NCBI GenBank assembly: GCA_951406725.2
Contig: OX597820.1
Location: 62,124,001-62,188,000, forward strand
DNA length: 64,000 nt
Direction of reading: 5' to 3'
Origin: Octopus vulgaris
Lineage: Eukaryota
Below are positions 3,212 through 60,100 of the stretch, one piece after another. Made by a program: the position numbers and the translations under genes. Numbering within the stretch: position 1 is the stretch's first letter; each line of letters begins with the position of its first letter. The notes below the pieces were generated by a model. That model searched no databases and had not been told where the DNA came from. It was given only the letters and a program-made list of their open reading frames with translations.

Positions 3212-3257
3212 TATATATATACCTGAAAAAGGAAAAGAATGACTTAAGGGTTTCACA

Positions 3258-4984
3258 CATTTTTAGCAGGTCCCGCATGCGAAACCCACCGCCTCAGTAA
3301 CTTTTTAGACACCCTGTTAAAGCCACTCCTCAAACATGTCAAAAGCTATATAAGGGACAACCTGGATATGCTCAATCACCTACCTAATACTAGAAACAAA
3401 AACACCCTACTAGTATCCTTCGATGTAGTCAACCTCTATTCCAATATTCCCCACAACCTAGGAATAGAGGCAATTCAATTCTGGCTAGAGAATCACGCCA
3501 ACGAACTCCCACATCGCATCAAAAAAGAATTCGTGATAGAAGGAGTTAAATTCATCCTGGAAAATAACTTCTTCGCCTTCAAAGACAACTTCTACCGACA
3601 AAAATCGGGGACTGCGATGGGTACGCGAATGGCCCCTTCCTTTGCCAACCTAGTCATGGGATATCTAGAAATCAGTCTGTATCGTAAGGTTCTAGAAAGA
3701 TATGGCAGCCCTTTCTCCCTCTACATAGAAAACAACTGGAAGAAATACCTAGATGACTGTTTCATTCTTTGGCATGAAAATATAGAGAAACTCAAAGAAT
3801 TCCAAGCAATTTTAAATGGACTGGAGGTAAACATCCAATTCACGATGGAATATAGCCAGCAAAAACTCCCCTTCCTCGACATCCTCATTAAGAAATCTAA
3901 TAATGTAATAGAAACAGATATATACTATAAGCCTACAGATTCTAAGCAATATCTTCCATTCAATTCATGTCACCCCAGACACACCAGAATGAATATCTCC
4001 TTCAATCTAGCAAAAAGGATATGTACTATAGTTTCTAATGCAAACACCAGAGACACATGACTACAAGAACTAAAAGATACCCTCATCACCAGGAACTACC
4101 CACCTTCACTTATTGACATATGCATTCAACGTGCCCTTCAACTCAACATCCAGGAACTGAGACATCCCAAATTAAAGAAATATTTACGACCAAAAGCCTT
4201 ACCATACATCTCCACACACAACCCTCTCAACAATGAAGCCTTCGACACCATCCTCCAAAACATACCCCTGCTAAAAAAAGACCACAGAATGAACATAATC
4301 CTCCAAACGCACACGATCATAAAAAGCAAGAGACAGCCTAAATGAAAAGTCTCCTAACACAAGCCGGAATACGCTCATCAACACAGAAGCCGACAGTAAA
4401 AAAAATGTGGAAGACCCAATTGCGGGATATGCGATTATCTAATTGAGGGATCAGAGTTCTCCTTCAAACAGGGACAACGGTTCACAGTGAAAAGCAACTT
4501 CACATGTGCTTCGGAGAAACTGATATACACACTAACCTGCTCTGGGTGTCAAGAGCAATACATAGGCCAAACAAAAAATAGTTTGCGTAAAAGAATGGCC
4601 CTGCACAGACCCCAGATAAAAATTCCCCCAAACAGAAAAATAGCATTCAGCCAACACATAGATATTTGCGCCAAGAACAAAACACCAAGCTTCAGGATTT
4701 TCCCCCTCTACCAATTCAGGGACGATACAACCTCGAGCCAACGAATAAGTAAAGAAACTCTCTTCATTACAAAATACAGGCCCCTTCTGAACGGGTCTAC
4801 GACAAACGATATATCCACCTCGGCTTTAGAATAACACAAATACACACGCAAATATTACATTCCTAAGAATCCATTAAAAATCAGCCCCAATCACAGCTAT
4901 AACCCAAAACGTGCCAACTTTAAGTCATACAACACCTCACTACTTCCACTCATTCATATTCTCCCTTCTCTTTCTTCTTCTTCT

Positions 4985-19335: not shown

Positions 19336-19529
19336 TGTCACTAAACGTGGCTAGGGTTTAAGGAAACACCTACATTGCTAGAAATAAGAGCTAAACCGCT
19401 CTAATACTGTAGTTACCGCACATAAATGAAAGCATTCATTCATGCGCGGTAACTACAGCATTAGGGTGTTTTAGCTCTTATTTCTAGCAATGTAGGTGTT
19501 TCCTAACATCCTAGTCGCATTTAGTGACA
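19336..19529. repeat. Fold-back palindrome / MITE-like hairpin with ~95-bp arms
   Basis: tgtcactaaa...aggaaacacctacattgctagaaataagagctaaa...gtagttaccgc mirrored by gcggtaactac...tttagctcttatttctagcaatgtaggtgtttcct...tttagtgaca. Confidence 0.9.
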
Positions 19530-19625: not shown

Positions 19626-20120
19626 CAGGGTGCGTAAGATATTTGAAGACAGATTTATGTTTATAAAAAAACAGATGTATAATGAATTTATTTATCGAAA
19701 ATTACTATAAGGATAAAAATTAATCTTCTTTTCTAGAATATTATTCAATAAAGTTACCTTCAGCAACAACAATTGCTTCTATATGAGATCTAAATCCTCT
19801 AAATGCTCGAATCAAGTGGTCCTGGTTTATTTTGGACACTACTCCAACTATGGCAGCTTTCATATAATCTTTGGCGTTATGGGTGTGTTCATTGACATCT
19901 CTCTCAACAACGCTCCACATGTAACAGTCCAATGGATTGAAATCTGGGGAATTAGGAGGCCAAATGTTAGTGAGTTATGTGATCATGAAAATTTTCAGTC
20001 ATCCATTCCTGTTACTTGAGCCATGTGGGATAGTGCAGAGATTGTCTATCAAGGACTTAATTATTTCCAGGACCTCAATGAACTATAGTTGTGAGGATAA
20101 ATGTTTTTTAGTCTTTCTGC

Positions 20121-20260
20121 CTATAGGCCATGAAGTAAGGCTCCCGGTTGGTCTGTTTATGGGAAGACCACCGGAGCAGAAGCTGCTCAGAGAAACCACC
20201 AGCTATGTGAAACATCTGCAAGAGAGGCTGACTGAGTACACCAAGTTAGAAAGGCTCTGA
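20121..20260 (+). pseudogene. Gypsy integrase C-terminal fragment inside the insertion
   Basis: IGHEVRLPVGLFMGRPPEQ..TTSYVKHLQERL resembles the G.E.RLP.DL.....YV..LQ.RL segment of Gypsy integrases. Confidence 0.6.
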
Positions 20261-20286
20261 AGTTTTCGGGTGAAGTGATGAAGCAT

Positions 20287-22092
20287 AGGCCTTTATTTTG
20301 TATCAACAATTTTTTGCCTAGAGTTTTCATTGCCTATTTTTCCTATATTTTTTAAAGTTATTTTTGGCCTACATTGTTTTATTAACTATATTTTGCCTAT
20401 ATTTTGTATCAACTGTTTTTCGCGTATATTTTTCTCAACTATATTTTGCCTACATCTTTTCTCAACTGTTGTTTGCCTACTTCTCAACTACATTTTGTCT
20501 ATAGTTTTTGTCTATATATTTTGCCATTTCATAAAAATTGTTAGTTCATGAAAAAATAGGCAACCAAGTAGCAGACATGGTTGACAAAAAATATAGAACT
20601 AAAAATATAAGGCTGCAAAAATATAGGCGAAAATTCATAAAACAAGATACACAAAAATAGTTGATCAAATTAAATATATTATAAAACAATATAGTTGATA
20701 AAAAATTGGCTAAAAATCGCAAAAACTATACACTAAAAGCTATAGGCAAAACTATAGGCTAAGCAAGAAGATAAAGTATAGGCAAAACTATATGAATATC
20801 TAAAGCCAACAATAGGTAAGAACTATACGTGAAACCGTATATGCTAAAATCTATAGGGAAGAAAACTTCACGGTTATTAAATAACTATTGGCAAATACTA
20901 TAGGCTAAAACTATAGGCAAACTATAGGCTGAAACTATAGGCAAAGCTTTAGGCGATAAAAACTATAGACAAACGATAGCTAAAACTATAGGCAGAATCT
21001 ATATGCAAACTATAGGCTAAAACTATAGTCTAAAGATGAAAAATTATAGGCAAACTATAGGCGACAAAACTATAGGCTAAAACTATAGGCAAACTATAGG
21101 CACAATGTACTATAGTGTAAAATATAGGTGAAATATAGTCTAAAATATAGGTGAAAAACTATAGGCTTAAATTGCTATAAGACAAATTATAGGCTAACTC
21201 TTTTGGCAAAGTATAGGCGACTATAGGCAGACGATAAAACTATAGGCTAAGACGAAATTACTATAGACAAAAAATTATAGACAAAACTATAGGCAAACTA
21301 TAGGCAAAACTATAGGCTAAAACTATGGGCAGAACTATAGTCTAAACCTATAGGTGACGAAAACTATAGGTAAAAAACTATAGGCAAAATATAGGCTGAA
21401 ATTACTATAAGACAGAATTATTGGCAGAACTACTGGCAAAATTATAGGCTAAAATTATAGTCAGGACTATAATAAATGCAAAGCTATAGGCGACTAAAAC
21501 TATAGGCAGACATAGAAAATCTATGGACTGAAATTACAATAGGCAAAACTCTATAGGCAACTGTATAGGCTGAAACAAACTATAGGCTACATATATAGGC
21601 AAAGGGCTACAACTATAAGCAAATCTATAGGTGACAAAACTATAGGCAAAACTATAGCTAAAACTATAGGCAGAACTATAGTTATAATCTAGGTAAAAAG
21701 CTATAGGCAGAACTATAGACAAGCTAGTTTCAGCTTATATTTTGCCAATATTCTTTGCGGCTATAGTTTACCGCCTATAGTTTTTGCCTATAGTTATGTA
21801 TTTGAGTGAACTTTTCTACCCTTTAGATTTTAGCCAATAGTTTTGACTAATTTCAGCCTATAGATTTCCTATAGTTTTTTCCAATAGTTTTTGTCATCTG
21901 CCTATAGTTTTGTCTATAGTTTTGTCGCCTATAAGTTGCCTATAGTTTTTCACCCAAATTTAGACTATAGTTCTGCCTATACTTCTCGCTATAATTTTGC
22001 TTATAATTTTTCTCGCCTATAGCTTTGCCTATAGTTTTAGCCTTTTTATTATAGTCCTGCCTATAATTTTAGCCAAAAGTTTTGCCTATAGT
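20287..22092. repeat. Heterogeneous ~11-13-bp AAACTATAGGC array with orientation switches
   Basis: Minus-oriented ~20287-20530, plus-oriented ~20555-21722, minus-oriented ~21724-22092. Confidence 0.92.
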
Positions 22093-22208
22093 TCATTGAG
22101 GTCCTGGAAATAATTATGTCCTGGATAGACAAACTCTTCCCATCAACAGACCAACCGGGAGCCTTACTTCATGGCCTATAGGCAGAAAGACTAAAAAACT
22201 TTTAAGAA

Positions 22209-22489
22209 ACAAGGAGTAAAAAACACTTATCCTCAAAACTATAGGCACAAGGACTAAAACAAACACTTATGCGCCTAACTATAGGCACAAGGATTAAAAA
22301 ACACTTATCCTCACAATTATAGGCTCAAGGTCTTAAACAAACAATTATCCTCTTAACTAGAGGTACAAGGACTGAAAAAACATTTTCCTCAAAACTATAG
22401 GCACAAGAACTAAAAACACTTACCCTCACAACTGTAAACAACAAGACTAAAAAACACTTATACTCACAACAATAGGCACAACTATAGGC
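22209..22489 (+). repeat. ~39-bp tandem repeat, about 7 copies
   Basis: Unit aaacacttatcctcacaactataggcacaaggactaaaa. Confidence 0.88.
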
Positions 22490-23268
22490 GGCATCACATG
22501 TCCTTCATTGCTGACAACCCCTAAAACTATGACAGTTGCAGAAAATTTTATATCAATAACACTTGCAGCTTCAGAAGGGTTTGCACACAGCTATCTGTCA
22601 TTTCTTGTTAACTCTTTGATCCAGGTCGAAGATTTTCTTGTTTGAGAAAAACCGAATCAAATCTTCTGCTGGATATTTTCTGATCATAAAAGACTTATAT
22701 TTGATGTCTTCGTGCACAACATTTGTGACGGTTCCTTCTGACACATGGAGATCTTCTGCATTTGGCCTCATGGACTTTGTGGGATTGTAGTCAATGGTCT
22801 GTTGAACGTGCTGGATACATTCGGGTGTTCTGAAGATTTCAGAGTGTTTAGAATACTTTTTATGCTTTGATACTGCTTATACTTTTCCATTTTCAGTCTC
22901 TACCTCCTTACAAACTTCGTAGATGAAAGCCCTGGCGACTTTTAAAAAAATAGAGATATTTCTAAATCACTATGCTCAGCCTTTATAACCACAATAACAG
23001 CATGCCTCTCCATTTCTTGAGTAAGTTGAGTGTCTGTCATTATTATTTTCTTAAACAAAGATTATACAGAGTTAGCAAAAAATGAAGTAATGACTCAGAA
23101 AAGGTATATCTTACAACCCACCCTATATATATATATATATGTACACACACATATGTATACGCTTATACGTATAAAACATACTCACACATATACAGGCTAT
23201 ATATCTGTTGCCTCTTTAACCTAGGAATATATATATATATACACATGCATATACATACACACATACAC

Positions 23269-29722: not shown

Positions 29723-30690
29723 CAGTGTGCGTCGAAGAAATTGTCACCTAGATAATTTAAAAATGAAAATAACATTTTTTTTTATTTTAACAGATATATT
29801 TACCAATATTACATAAAAATATCTTGAAATACTGGTGGTGCCCCAGCATAGCCACAGCTCGTAAGCTGAAACTAGATAAAGATAAAGATAAAGAAGATAG
29901 TGAAAAATAAATTTATTCAATAAACTCGTCATCGGGTTTCAACCACGACCTCTAGGCGACTTCGGAATCTCCTGCAACACTTCTGGACAATCTTCTTGTT
30001 TAAGTTGGTGAATACTGTCATAATCCTTGCCTTCAGTTCATCTTTGATGTTACCAGGAGTATTGTTGGTCTCTCGCTCAACTGCATCCTACTCATAATAA
30101 ACAAGAGTGTTTTAGTCGGGGGAGTTAGGTGGCCAGATGTTAGGGGTGATAGAGTCGCAGAAATTGTCTGAGAGCCACGACTGGGTTCTCCTGCATGTGT
30201 GGTATGGTGCAGAGGCATGTTGGCAGACACAGGGTCTTTCAATAGTTACTCTCTAGACCCAGGGTGGCACAACCTCTGCCGGGTACTTGATGTAGGTCTC
30301 CGGAGGCATAACGTTGCCATCACTAAATATCACACTAAACACCATGAGGTTGATTGGATGTTTGATTCTTATCACTCTCGTTACATGTTCTGGGGATACG
30401 GGAAGCAAACGGTTGTTGTCCATCTGATGCTGGCAGAAATTTTTCTCGTCTGAAAAAACCAAAGCATGTTCAAAAGCTTCATTGCGCGGTCTTTCCTCTT
30501 CTCCTTGATGGCTTCGAATAAAAATTGGCCCTTTATCATCTTGTACGAGGAATACTGAATGTCTCTCACGTGGTTTAGAGTTGTTTTGACTCTTATTTCT
30601 AGCAATGCTGGCGCCTGCTACCACTCTCCATCACTTTAGTGATGACTGTACTTGTTACCTTTCGGTTTAAAATTACGAATAACTGCCTTA
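29723..30690 (-). mobile_element. maT (DD37D) transposon relic, internally deleted
   Basis: FSDEKNFCQ, MVFSVIFSDGNVMPP, WPPNSP; terminus cagtgtgcgtcgaagaaattgtcacct after TA; short SINE-like tail nested near 29832-29895. Confidence 0.85.
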
Positions 30691-30698
30691 ATAATCTA

Positions 30699-30819
<121 letters not shown>

Positions 30820-48524: not shown

Positions 48525-50011
48525 TCTCTTATTATAAAAGGCAGATTTTATCTACCTCCCTTTGGGAGTTATACAAATCTACAATATAGGATTTCTTCAA
48601 TTACAATTTACCTAGCAATTTTAAGAGTACAATGCATCGCGTCATGCCAGGTCCAGTTTTTAAAATTTAAACTCCAATTAAGCAAAATTTACAGAAAACT
48701 CACATTCTGGTGTGTGTGTCAAATGCTTTTCTTAGTCTGGTTTACACCACACACAAACGCACACACACACAAAGGGAGCGAATTGTTTCACTGACGCTAT
48801 CACCCTTCTCCTCCTTTGTCTTTGCAAGTTTGCAGCTATTAAAGTGAAAACAGTGAATCCGACAGCGATAAAGAAAACGAATTGGTACCTGAATGGAGTG
48901 AAAATTTAAAAACTGTTTCTTTCGGTGAGTTTTCTGAAGAAACTGGACCAAGCCACAGACTTTCCCAGAAGAGTAAAGCCTTAGACTATTTCTATTTACT
49001 TTTTCGAATGAGCCTATTTGAAATCATTACGCTAAACGTAAACAAACCGAAAGAAAGGATAGTTTGTTATTTCCCACAACCTTAAATGAAATTAAGGCCT
49101 ATTTTGCCATAAATATTATTATGGGTTTCAGAAAGTTACCCAGAATAACAAATTCTATCGTAAAATTTTGTTGTATACCCAATTGAATATTAGCTAATAA
49201 CCCATTTTCTATAGCGATGTTTGAACAAAATTTTAATAATTTTACAGAAAGTTACCCAGAATAACAAATTCTATCGTAAAATTTTGTTGTATACCCAATT
49301 GAATATTAGCTAATAACCCATTTTCTATAGCGATGTTTGAACAAAATTTTAATAATTTTACAGAAAGTTACCCAGAATAACAAATTCTATCGTAAAATTT
49401 TGTTGTATACTAAATTGAATATTAGCTAATAACCCATTTTCTATAGCGATGTTTGAACAAAATTTTAATAATTTTACAGAAAGTTACCCAGAATAACAAA
49501 TTCTATCGTAAAATTTTGTTGTATACCAAATTGAATATTAGCTAATAACCCATTTTCTATAGCGATGTTTGAACAAAATTTTAATAATTTTACAGAAAGT
49601 TACCCAGAATAACAAATTCTATCGTAAAATTTTGTTGTCTACCCAATTGAATATTAGCTAATAACCCATTTTCTATAGCGATGTTTGAACAAAATTTTAA
49701 TAATTTTACAGAAAGTTACCCAGAATAACAAACGAGCCCTTCTGGGTATTAGCGCGCGTCTACGATGAGTCTACGATTTAAAAAAAAATTACCACCATAT
49801 TTTTCCATTTTAATGCATTTTTTTCGCTTTTATATAAGGGAAGTAACTCTCTAAAAATATCTACGATGTGTCAACGATTTAAAGAAAAATTTACCTTAAT
49901 TTTTTTTCAATTTTTAATGCATTTTTTTGCTACTTTTTGGCTATAACTCTCTAAAAATGCTTATATAGTTATTTCCCTTACAATCCGAGCAACGCCGGGC
50001 GATACTGCTAG
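48525..50011 (+). mobile_element. Non-autonomous Helitron carrying an internal tandem array
   Basis: 5' TC, 3' hairpin ccgagcaacgccggg then CTAG, inserted between A and T with no TSD; 3' end shared with the 60265 and 60753 copies. Confidence 0.9.
49129..49732 (+). repeat. 116-bp tandem repeat, 5.2 near-identical copies
   Basis: Unit starts cagaaagttacccagaataacaaa at 49129, 49245, 49361, 49477, 49593 and 49709. Confidence 0.97.
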
Positions 50012-57710: not shown

Positions 57711-58173
57711 CTGCGTGTATGTATATCACTGGTTCAACTAAGATACACAAGTGAGTTTGTATACATTATATAATTACACACATGCACAAATGGAAGGACA
57801 TGCGCAGAAATTCACATCCGAAGCAATTTTAAAGATCAATCGAGATGTTACGTTGAAGTTAGAATGTTGAGCCTCTAAGCAATTAATTTTAGTAATAAAC
57901 AAATGTCCACGAAAGGGAACCTAAAGTGTGCGGGGTGGGGCGTGAAAGAGGGATTTGTGAATGCATTAATAGTTGGCAAAATGGGGTAGAGATAGAAGAA
58001 GGTTTAGTGGGTTTTGACGTGAATCGTTATAGCAATTCTTGCCCGCCTATTGATGACTTATTAAAAGGATGTAATGTAAGAAGTTAAATTATGTTTACAG
58101 TATACAGGCGTTTGAGGGCAATTCAGATAAATATATGCGTATATATATATATATATATATATATACATACATA

Positions 58174-58702
58174 CACTGGTTGCGGTGAAAAAATTGGCAT
58201 CTAAATTTCGCAAAAATGAAAATAACACTGACATCTCATTTTAATGGATATATTTATCAAAATTACATAAAAATATCTTGAATTACTAAAGAGAAAATTT
58301 CTTCAATAAAATCGACTTTGGCTTTAACCGCGGCCTCCAGACGAATTCGGAAACACCTGCAACTCGTTGGGACAGTCTCCTTGTTAAAGTTGGTGAATGC
58401 TGCCATAATCCTTGCCCTCAGTTCATCTTTGGTGTTACAAGGAGTTTTTGGGTCACGCGCGCAACTGCACCCCATACACAATATTCAAGGAGGTTGCAAT
58501 CTGGGGAGTTAGGTGGCCAGATGTTAGATGTGATGTGATCGCAGAAATTGTCTGACGGAAATGATTGGCTTCTCCTGCTTGTGTGGAATGGTGCACTCTC
58601 CTGTTGTCAGACATAGTCTTCCAGCAGCCATGCTCTTGACACACGGCAGCACTGCCTCCTCCGCGAACTTGACGCAGGGCTCCGTGTTGAGTTTGAGACC
58701 AT
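58174..58702 (-). mobile_element. maT (DD37D) transposon 3' relic
   Basis: HGLKLNTE, QESAPFH, WPPNSPDCN, NTKDELRARIMAAF, FRIRLEAAVKAKVDFIE; terminus similar to 29723. Confidence 0.85.
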
Positions 58703-58957
58703 GATGTTTGAGAATTTAGTGCATGATGAATGAAATGTACGCAATTCTAGGACCTTTTCGCACCACTTGTATATCTTTTCATCTACAAGCATGGCCTTTT
58801 GGTAGACAGAATTACTCAGAGTAATTCTACATTTCATGTATAATCTCCCATTCCTTTCGTTGAGCATTGGATTTGATTTTAGGGTATGGCAGTTGTTTGT
58901 ATGGGAATGTGCATAGGGCGGAAGAATGGGAGGAAAATAGAAAGAGAGAGATGAAAG

Positions 58958-60100
58958 AGAGGAAAACATTTTTGTATCAATTGACGTAGTAAACATCTAT
59001 ACCACGATCCTGCGCCAACATGGGCAAGAGGCAATAAATTTCTGGCTAGAAAAATTGCCTCATGAAATTCCAAACAAAACTCATATCACCGAAGGATTAA
59101 AATTCACCATTGAAAACAACTTTTTTGAGTTTAATGAGAATAGTTTCAAACCAATACCTGGGACTGCGATGGTTACAAAAGTCGCTTCGACTCCCGCAAA
59201 TTTATCCATGACATTACTTGTCATGGAGGTCCAGATATATGATTAATGCAAATTAGATTACGGCTGGAACTTCCATAAATATTTACTAGCATACTGGAAA
59301 TGCTACTCATATGACTGGCTACTTTTGTGGATGCACACACTTATTGAATTCAAAAACCTAATTAACATTATAAACAGTAGTATCGACTTTACCATGGAAT
59401 TTAGTAAAGCTCAAATACCATTCGTCGACATTTTAATCACAAAAGGAGATAAAAATATTGGCACAGACAGATTCTGTTTTCCTTATGCTGTTTTCCTTAT
59501 GCCATCCCAAACACACGAAGCCTAATGATCCTTTTAATCCAACAAGAAGAATCTGCACAAATGTTTCAATCGTTAAAAGCCGTAATAAAAGGATCCGGAA
59601 TTAAAACAAACGCTACTCGAAAGAAAATATTCGTCAATGTTAATAGACAACGAAATACAGCGTGCGAAAACAATAGATTTTAAAGAATTGCGAGAACAAA
59701 AAATACTTCAGATACACTCAGTATTCTACTCTCTATTACAACAGACAACAGCATTATCCACCTGAACATTCCACTACTGAGATAAGACCCAAAAATCAGA
59801 CAAGCACTCGAAATAATTAAAATAATAAAAAAATATCATAAATGAGGTATTAGGAAAGGAAAAAAAATAAGTGTAGACGTTCTTTAATTCATAATCCTGG
59901 TTCGTACAGAACCAATATACGTTTTACAAATTGTTTCGGAGCCTAATTACTTCCAAAGACAAAAACGAAAAACTGTTCTTGAAATGAGAATTAGATTTTG
60001 CGTCAGGAATTACATACTGGTATGAATAACTACGACCAACAAAAATATACAAAAACCTTTCATAGCCCAGACGGGAACAAGCAAATTATAATAAAATGAA
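58958..60100 (+). pseudogene. Older decayed Neptune-type Penelope RT/GIY-YIG
   Basis: VSIDVVNIYTTI, EAINFWLE, ENNFFEF, GTAMVTKVA, FTMEFS..IPFVDILI and FIAQTG are colinear with 3258-4834. Confidence 0.85.

Follow-up and report, generated by a model that had tools for sequence, protein, structure and literature searches.

How a transposase gene came to be split by 2.4 kb of repeats that change strand three times is the question raised by this locus. Within the window (the whole 64-kb stretch of DNA analysed here), a degenerate maT-type transposase is interrupted by a 2.4-kb insert whose CTATAGGC-core units lie in four alternating blocks. The first-pass annotation had taken the insert for a satellite now being born at a break, written by snap-back synthesis or by repeated reverse transcription of a short template. 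We give a probability of roughly 55% to an older history, in which template-switch repair of the broken maT element left the patchwork as filler, the filler was later multiplied with the element, and its arrays were reshuffled. The locus is best read as a Pack-TIR-like non-autonomous maT transposon carrying a complex repair filler that was multiplied and then remodelled.

The maT-type element spans 19626–23125, with terminal repeats at its ends and ~1,090 bases of maT sequence. Its 3' part (19626–20082, minus strand) contains the terminal repeat CAGGGTG...TAAGATAT at 19626 and the transposase C-terminus, IEVLE ... WPPNSPDFNPLD ... GNFIE, with frameshifts and a ~11-codon deletion near 20045. 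The 5' part (22490–23125, minus strand; ends ...GVVSNEGHVMPP) has a ~25-codon deletion near 22690 and a decayed match to the terminal repeat at 23125. Both internal deletions were judged by eye against a relative at 29900–30700. The minus-strand frame ...EGHVMPP stops at 22486 and the minus-strand frame IEVLE... resumes at 20079. Contigs of four short-read runs (X1, X2, X3 and X5) were aligned to the window at 80% likeness, and in 4 of 4 runs other copies of the family skip from 20080 to 22486, with a loose end at 22486 that reads YFFPQGLRVN when translated by eye. The 2.4 kb therefore replaced ~14 codons, and both the split of the transposase by a strand-flipping patchwork and the replacement of ~40 bp, as first annotated, were borne out. 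No target duplication was seen at the insert ends, where there is this deletion instead.

The host is assigned to maT tentatively, from the frames, a weak Pfam DDE_3 match (E 0.061) and a residue count made over frameshifts. Elements of the maT group (Tc1/mariner) have DD37D catalytic spacing (PMC5490172); here a count from SAL... to the last D, which crosses two frameshifts, gives 37 residues, and the second D falls at a deletion. The 3' part matched the relative at 29941–30228 at 45% in tblastx, and searches at the protein level, with the chimeric frame or the transposase piece as query, returned no named homologue. In contigs of other copies the family end is followed by TA; the left flank of the studied copy reads CA. 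By contig depth, which is a rough guide and gives no copy number, the maT family is dispersed and high-copy: summed depth over both maT flanks was 10,000–180,000 in X1, X2 and X5, against 0–1,000 over the insert. The other maT copies in the contigs differ from the studied one by 15–20%. Two further degenerate maT-like copies, of a different subfamily, lie in the window on the minus strand (29900–30700 and 58170–58720), the first lacking ~10 codons directly after VMPP, the same place as the break in the studied copy. Adjoining the maT end, at 19336–19529, is a hairpin element that looks like a MITE (95-base arms, 87% complementary, 4 bases between them).

On the plus strand, the maT 3' part is followed by CTATAG, one reverse 38-bp unit, the palindrome GCCTATAGGC, a Gypsy piece and block S1; then come a flip, a forward block of 1.2 kb, a second flip, block S2, two inverted copies (A' and G'), seven forward 38-bp units, GGC and the maT 5' part. 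The single unit, U (20083–20128, minus strand), is bounded by two CTATAG motifs and ends in the palindrome. The Gypsy piece (20126–20290, plus strand) is a 165-bp scrap of a Gypsy-type LTR retrotransposon from the C-terminal side of integrase, with AGGC-type core matches at both ends. It gave 10 protein matches at E ≤ 0.001, eight of them 58–64% identical, to proteins that carry rve or Integrase_p58_C and are named gag-pol or integrase. Since these homologues read MLGH at its start, the entry point probably shared TAGGC with the core; the piece ends at CATAGG. The identifiable cargo is TE-derived, with no parent within the window.

S1 (20290–20530, minus strand) has a ~27-bp period, and 8 of its 10 cores carry a C>A change, giving ATATAGGC. 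The main forward block (20545–21724, plus strand) starts irregularly and continues with 69 cores at 10–34-bp periods and recurring spacer types, and S2 (21730–22092, minus strand) has 50–80-bp tracts that match scattered places of the main block. A' (22086–22137, plus strand) is an inverted copy of the left maT flank at 20037–20088 (49/52 bases), and G' (22135–22199, minus strand) is an inverted copy of unit U plus the Gypsy start at 20103–20167 (64/65, with 55 exact). The last array, of seven 37–63-bp units of the 38-bp type (22176–22489, plus strand), is 83% alike pairwise and is joined to maT through GGC. No source of the units was found in the maT flanks or elsewhere in the 64-kb window, and Rfam gave no match inside the insert at E ≤ 0.1, its only matches being to microsatellites and hairpins outside it. 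The three strand switches of the first-pass annotation were thus confirmed. Its account of a single core throughout had to be widened, as the insert goes beyond 11–13-bp units and includes the altered first block, 38-bp units (a single one on the left and seven on the right), the inverted copies and the Gypsy piece.

The junctions between modules carry the case for repair. The CTATAG at which A' starts is that of the left junction itself, and A', judged by eye against the relative, carries the deletion scar of that flank. Over 117 bases, A' and G' together show 4 differences from their templates. Inverted junction copies that set out from the same CTATAG are a footprint of snap-back, and they support template switching at the junctions. 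Six of the seven module junctions fall on CTATAG, GCCTATAGGC, ATAGGCC or GGC, close to what had been claimed for CTATAG and AGGC; the seventh, between the maT copy and the Gypsy copy at 22135, is off the core. The hexamer CAGAGA is common to the Gypsy piece (20188–20193) and the maT flank (20036–20041). Putative microhomologies at the junctions are GGC on the right side, matches to the core where the Gypsy piece starts and stops, and CAGAG between that piece and A'. A resemblance of the 38-bp unit to the lost maT segment (10/12 by eye) was set aside as being at chance level by a rough hand estimate. The set of junctions is best read as one repair synthesis in which the self-complementary CTATAG and the AGGC end served as primers and the growing strand folded back onto its own start.

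The arms are only 3% apart, whereas cores are 11% off, the 38-bp units are 83% alike and other maT copies are 15–20% off; at 12% divergence, four or fewer differences in 117 bases have a probability of 0.001. A single old event then needs either later homogenisation of the arms or units that varied from the start, and this disparity counts against the repair-filler origin.

Next, the arrays themselves were compared with simulated and shuffled sequence. The window has 32 occurrences of ACTATAGGC, every one within 20751–22489, whereas shuffled sequence would give 0.41. There are three switches of core orientation and AT skew, cores being on the minus strand at 20290–20530, plus at 20545–21724, minus at 21730–22092 and plus at 22176–22489. 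Per-base core mismatch in the main block and S2 is 11%, which is a floor, as cores with ≤2 mismatches were counted. Neighbouring spacers are no more alike than random ones at lags 1–5, and 1 of 67 adjacent spacers is identical to its neighbour. Recurring spacer starts (25 of 89) far exceed those in 300 decay simulations with substitutions and indels (mean 0.8, maximum 8). In matching the main block, the 60-nt patches of S2 outdid all 100 unit shuffles. Patches within the main block itself were marginal (4 of 100 shuffles reached the score), and neither long-range higher-order repeat nor collinearity was significant, being equalled in 10 of 100 and in 14 of 200 shuffles. The insert has no mirror symmetry, its longest inverted arms being 70–74 bases. 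The self-complementary CTATAG, annotated earlier as common to both orientations, is absent from array flips 1 (~20540) and 2 (~21727), which are off any CTATAG palindrome. A mirror fold-back at these flips was also rejected, since 21% and 35% of other offsets scored as well as the near-mirror offset or better, and the hairpins there (z –2.3 to –2.6) are expected of any inverted units. Snap-back and template switching, as first proposed, therefore stand for the module junctions and fall for flips 1 and 2 as mirror fold-backs.

S2 patches that match without long collinearity or mirrored flips indicate that multi-unit tracts were copied in scrambled order. Such scrambling excludes plain slippage, as the first-pass annotation had maintained, and plain fold-back as well; it fits template switching or conversion-type turnover of variant repeats. 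Interspersed variant repeats in minisatellites also arise by conversion. The same data bear on the idea that the whole 2.4 kb, units included, arose de novo through iterative primer realignment in a single reaction, whether in this copy or an ancestral one, with spacer variety present from birth. Dissimilar neighbouring spacers, the scrambled tracts of S2 and arms far more alike than the units would all be expected of such a reaction. We nevertheless consider it rather improbable: flips 1 and 2 are neither mirror images nor on CTATAG, the maT flanks hold no seed for the units, the insert is ~100 times the usual size of a templated insert, conversion would yield the same interspersion, and contigs hint at a differing main block in other versions (see below). 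Telomerase-like copying of one short RNA template, over and over, by a reverse transcriptase is scarcely credible. The trinucleotide AAA precedes 26 of the 42 perfect cores, as expected if a U-ended RNA were copied. However, the cores are followed mainly by one of three bases (A 25, T 10, G 4; two others are at the Gypsy junction and one at a block end), which are not the prefixes of one template; both orientations are present, and the Rfam search inside the insert was blank. The three different bases largely refute the short-template proposal in the first-pass annotation.

We asked whether the insert is real and whether it occurs more than once. The statements below draw on 32 of 16,852 aligned contig pieces, on 15 joints out of 187 and on 40 rows of a difference table that has 558, and a 31-base rule decided whether a contig counted as bridging a junction. 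X1, possibly the source sample, gave exact contigs over 20709–20926 and 20900–21098 at depth 31. X3, from another study, matched 20609–20836 with 2 differences and 22275–22480 with 0, its exact contigs lying at depth 2–2.6. X5, which carries another species label, bridged flip 1 at depth 183 (over 270 bases there were 21 substitutions and 13 gaps; other X5 contigs lie near depth 21) and the S2/A' junction at depth 23.6; over 22209–22515 it had 6 differences in 306 and reached 26 bases into maT, below the 31-base rule. An artefact of assembly or amplification is very unlikely given the matches from another study and the junctions from another species label, even though no contig among the 32 pieces listed covers flip 2, the left junction or the whole insert, and X1 may be the source sample. 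Zero or low X5 depth over the main block and the lack of the window allele in X2, among the rows listed, were not taken as absence.

The joint 20189→22135, which links the Gypsy piece to A' on opposite strands, was present in 4 of 4 runs and under two species labels (depth 149 in X1, compared with 31 for its exact contigs, and 69, 3.8 and 185 in the others), with a short side of 36 bases in X1 and 24–25 in the other three runs. In these other copies the Gypsy piece is 22 bases longer at the A' joint than in the window copy. As CAGAGA is shared at this joint, the long form is likely the original junction, from which the window copy later lost 22 bases. Contigs over flip 1 and the Gypsy/maT joint have ~5–9 times the depth of exact single contigs, which suggests that the insert is multi-copy, with ~5–9 haplotype copies, or ~2–4 loci if depths are per haplotype. 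Internal junctions in several copies and under a second species label, 11% mismatched cores, flips 1 and 2 that are not mirror fold-backs and the lack of a local unit template speak against a satellite now being born at the break. The first-pass annotation had also asked whether the same block recurs with identical ends at many unrelated loci; the contigs bear this out only in part, with a few copies that share internal junctions.

Other versions of the insert may differ in arrangement. One X5 contig at depth 23.6 lies on 21739–22131 with 158 unaligned bases in front, another of equal depth ends at 20833 and has variant bases shared by X1 and X2, and the depth-183 contig ends near 20680. Going by the equal depths and end distances only, another version may hold 20680–21730 inverted, flip 2 then being a later inversion. 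A 7-base inverted match at the supposed inversion ends was discarded as chance, since 39% of 400 random pairs reach it.

An X3 joint, 22329→22296, has the 38-base period and a depth of 125, ~50–60 times that of the exact contigs, a hint of a homogeneous 38-bp array elsewhere in the genome. This array, if present, would suit an older mobile satellite, or an element of foldback type, that bore 38-bp units in inverted orientation at its ends and inserted into maT, A' and G' arising by later local rearrangement. The 38-bp unit indeed stands at both insert ends in inverted orientation, no unit source lies within the window, and foldback elements are described as seeding satellites (PMC4079207). Against such an insertion are the absent target duplication with its ~14 lost codons, ends that are not extended mirror arms (one unit versus seven), and the maT-derived A', which other copies, too, carry joined to the Gypsy piece. 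The last point strains the explanation unless those copies descend from a maT-embedded origin. We regard it as unlikely, though as the rival to be taken most seriously.

A repair-filler origin can be laid out as a series of steps, of which the modules, their order, the inverted copies and the junction matches are observed. The broken left maT end would have gained CTATAG and one 38-bp unit. The AGGC end of the core would then have primed on Gypsy integrase sequence and left it at the next ATAGG, repeat units being added after. The growing end, again CTATAG, could have folded onto the CTATAG of the left junction, where ~50 flank bases were copied as A'; a jump through the shared CAGAG to the Gypsy piece would have allowed copying back through the palindrome into the 38-bp unit, giving G', before the right maT end was rejoined through GGC. 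All modules would derive from one repair event, after which transposase presumably moved the composite to a few loci. The arrays would have grown later and been scrambled by tract-level exchange, probably with an inversion that placed flip 2. Besides the disparity between the arms and both the units and the other maT copies, further points weigh against this origin: the other copies are known from depth and joints, which place them neither within maT nor at separate loci; the short side of the Gypsy/A' joint, 36 bases in X1, is just 24–25 in the other three runs; none of the 32 listed contig pieces covers flip 2 or the left junction; inserts made by polymerase theta seldom reach 25 bases, with snap-back a minor class, in the available account (PMC5068794); and the units have no local source.

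In a bolder and improbable version, the self-complementary CTATAG end acted as a reusable primer that wrote both the 12-bp and the 38-bp families de novo in one repair, with foreign DNA as spacers; the transposon would have spread the product, and one copy would have become the 38-bp satellite hinted at in X3. If true, the copies could be dated as a fossil series, recording a satellite that template-switch repair created and a DNA transposon dispersed.

Relatives were sought in public metagenome and viral contigs with a three-core pattern, which found 52 metagenome and 6 viral loci. None of the 58 has runs of at least two cores in both orientations, and BLAST matched the array only; they were accordingly rejected as relatives and are look-alike minisatellites. 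Six metagenome contigs (L004, L014, L039, L040, L043 and L044) hold single-orientation arrays of 19–27 ACTATAGGC-like cores. The window itself is AT-rich, microsatellite-rich animal DNA. At 49129–49732 it has a young 116-bp tandem repeat (5.2 copies, 98% matches) with one CTATAG per unit and otherwise unlike the insert, and frames at 3248–4834 and ~58940–59250 look like what we take to be pieces of a Penelope-type reverse transcriptase and GIY-YIG domain. No published description of the element was found, in a search that left most subscription papers and the repeat databases outside its scope, and it may already be catalogued. No function is indicated for the insert. How new satellite units first originate is an open question, and a small family that shares repair-type junctions and differs in its arrays, in two related species, would allow break, filler, spread, array growth and inversion to be placed in order.

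Among known systems, animal Pack-TIRs are explained by gap filling with microhomology (gap-filling and FoSTeST models) and later transposition (Tan et al., 2021, PMC8277862). As in the available description of these elements, a TIR transposon was broken internally with a small loss (~4% here; median 4.6% there), foreign DNA was captured at microhomologies, and later transposition multiplied some of them (PMC8277862). Those elements, unlike this one, carry a single copied segment (median 224 bp) whose parent is identified (PMC8277862); the present insert is 2.4 kb, mostly alternating repeat units with a Gypsy scrap and its own inverted junction, and its multiplication is known from contig depth and joints. 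The cargo lies between two parts of one TIR element with microhomology at the breakpoints, and it contains no non-TE sequence with an identified parent. SD-MMEJ employs snap-back at inverted primer repeats (PMC5728401), and its products and polymerase theta inserts, as far as the available accounts go, resemble this insert in snapping back at short inverted repeats that act as primers, in copying the flank as its reverse complement, in priming repeatedly and in closing at microhomology (PMC5728401, PMC5068794). Those inserts, in contrast, are mostly <25 bases and come from the flank (PMC5728401, PMC5068794), whereas the present one has a fold-back across 2 kb and for the most part lacks a local template. 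Templating from the flank or primer repeats is seen for A' (52 bases) and, from within the insert, for G', and is not seen for ~2.1 kb of units.

Ds2 is likewise a non-autonomous deletion derivative whose interior was replaced by unrelated filler and which has tens of copies or fewer, in the available account (PMC3260210); it differs in being a hAT family element of maize, and the part of that account available mentions no strand-flipping array (PMC3260210). The foldback element Tetris and its TIR-220 satellite are similar in that a DNA element contains tandem units in inverted arrangement, which may grow into homogeneous arrays (PMC4079207). Tetris, as there described, has long modular terminal inverted repeats and 8–10-bp target duplications (PMC4079207); the insert has neither, and its units sit within a transposase gene. 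Lacking long mirror arms, an 8–10-bp target duplication and a non-TE cargo of known parent, the element was filed neither with foldback elements nor with Pack-TIRs, though it works like the latter. Even on the ordinary reading as repair filler later multiplied with its host, its complexity is unusual among fillers of animal DNA transposons.
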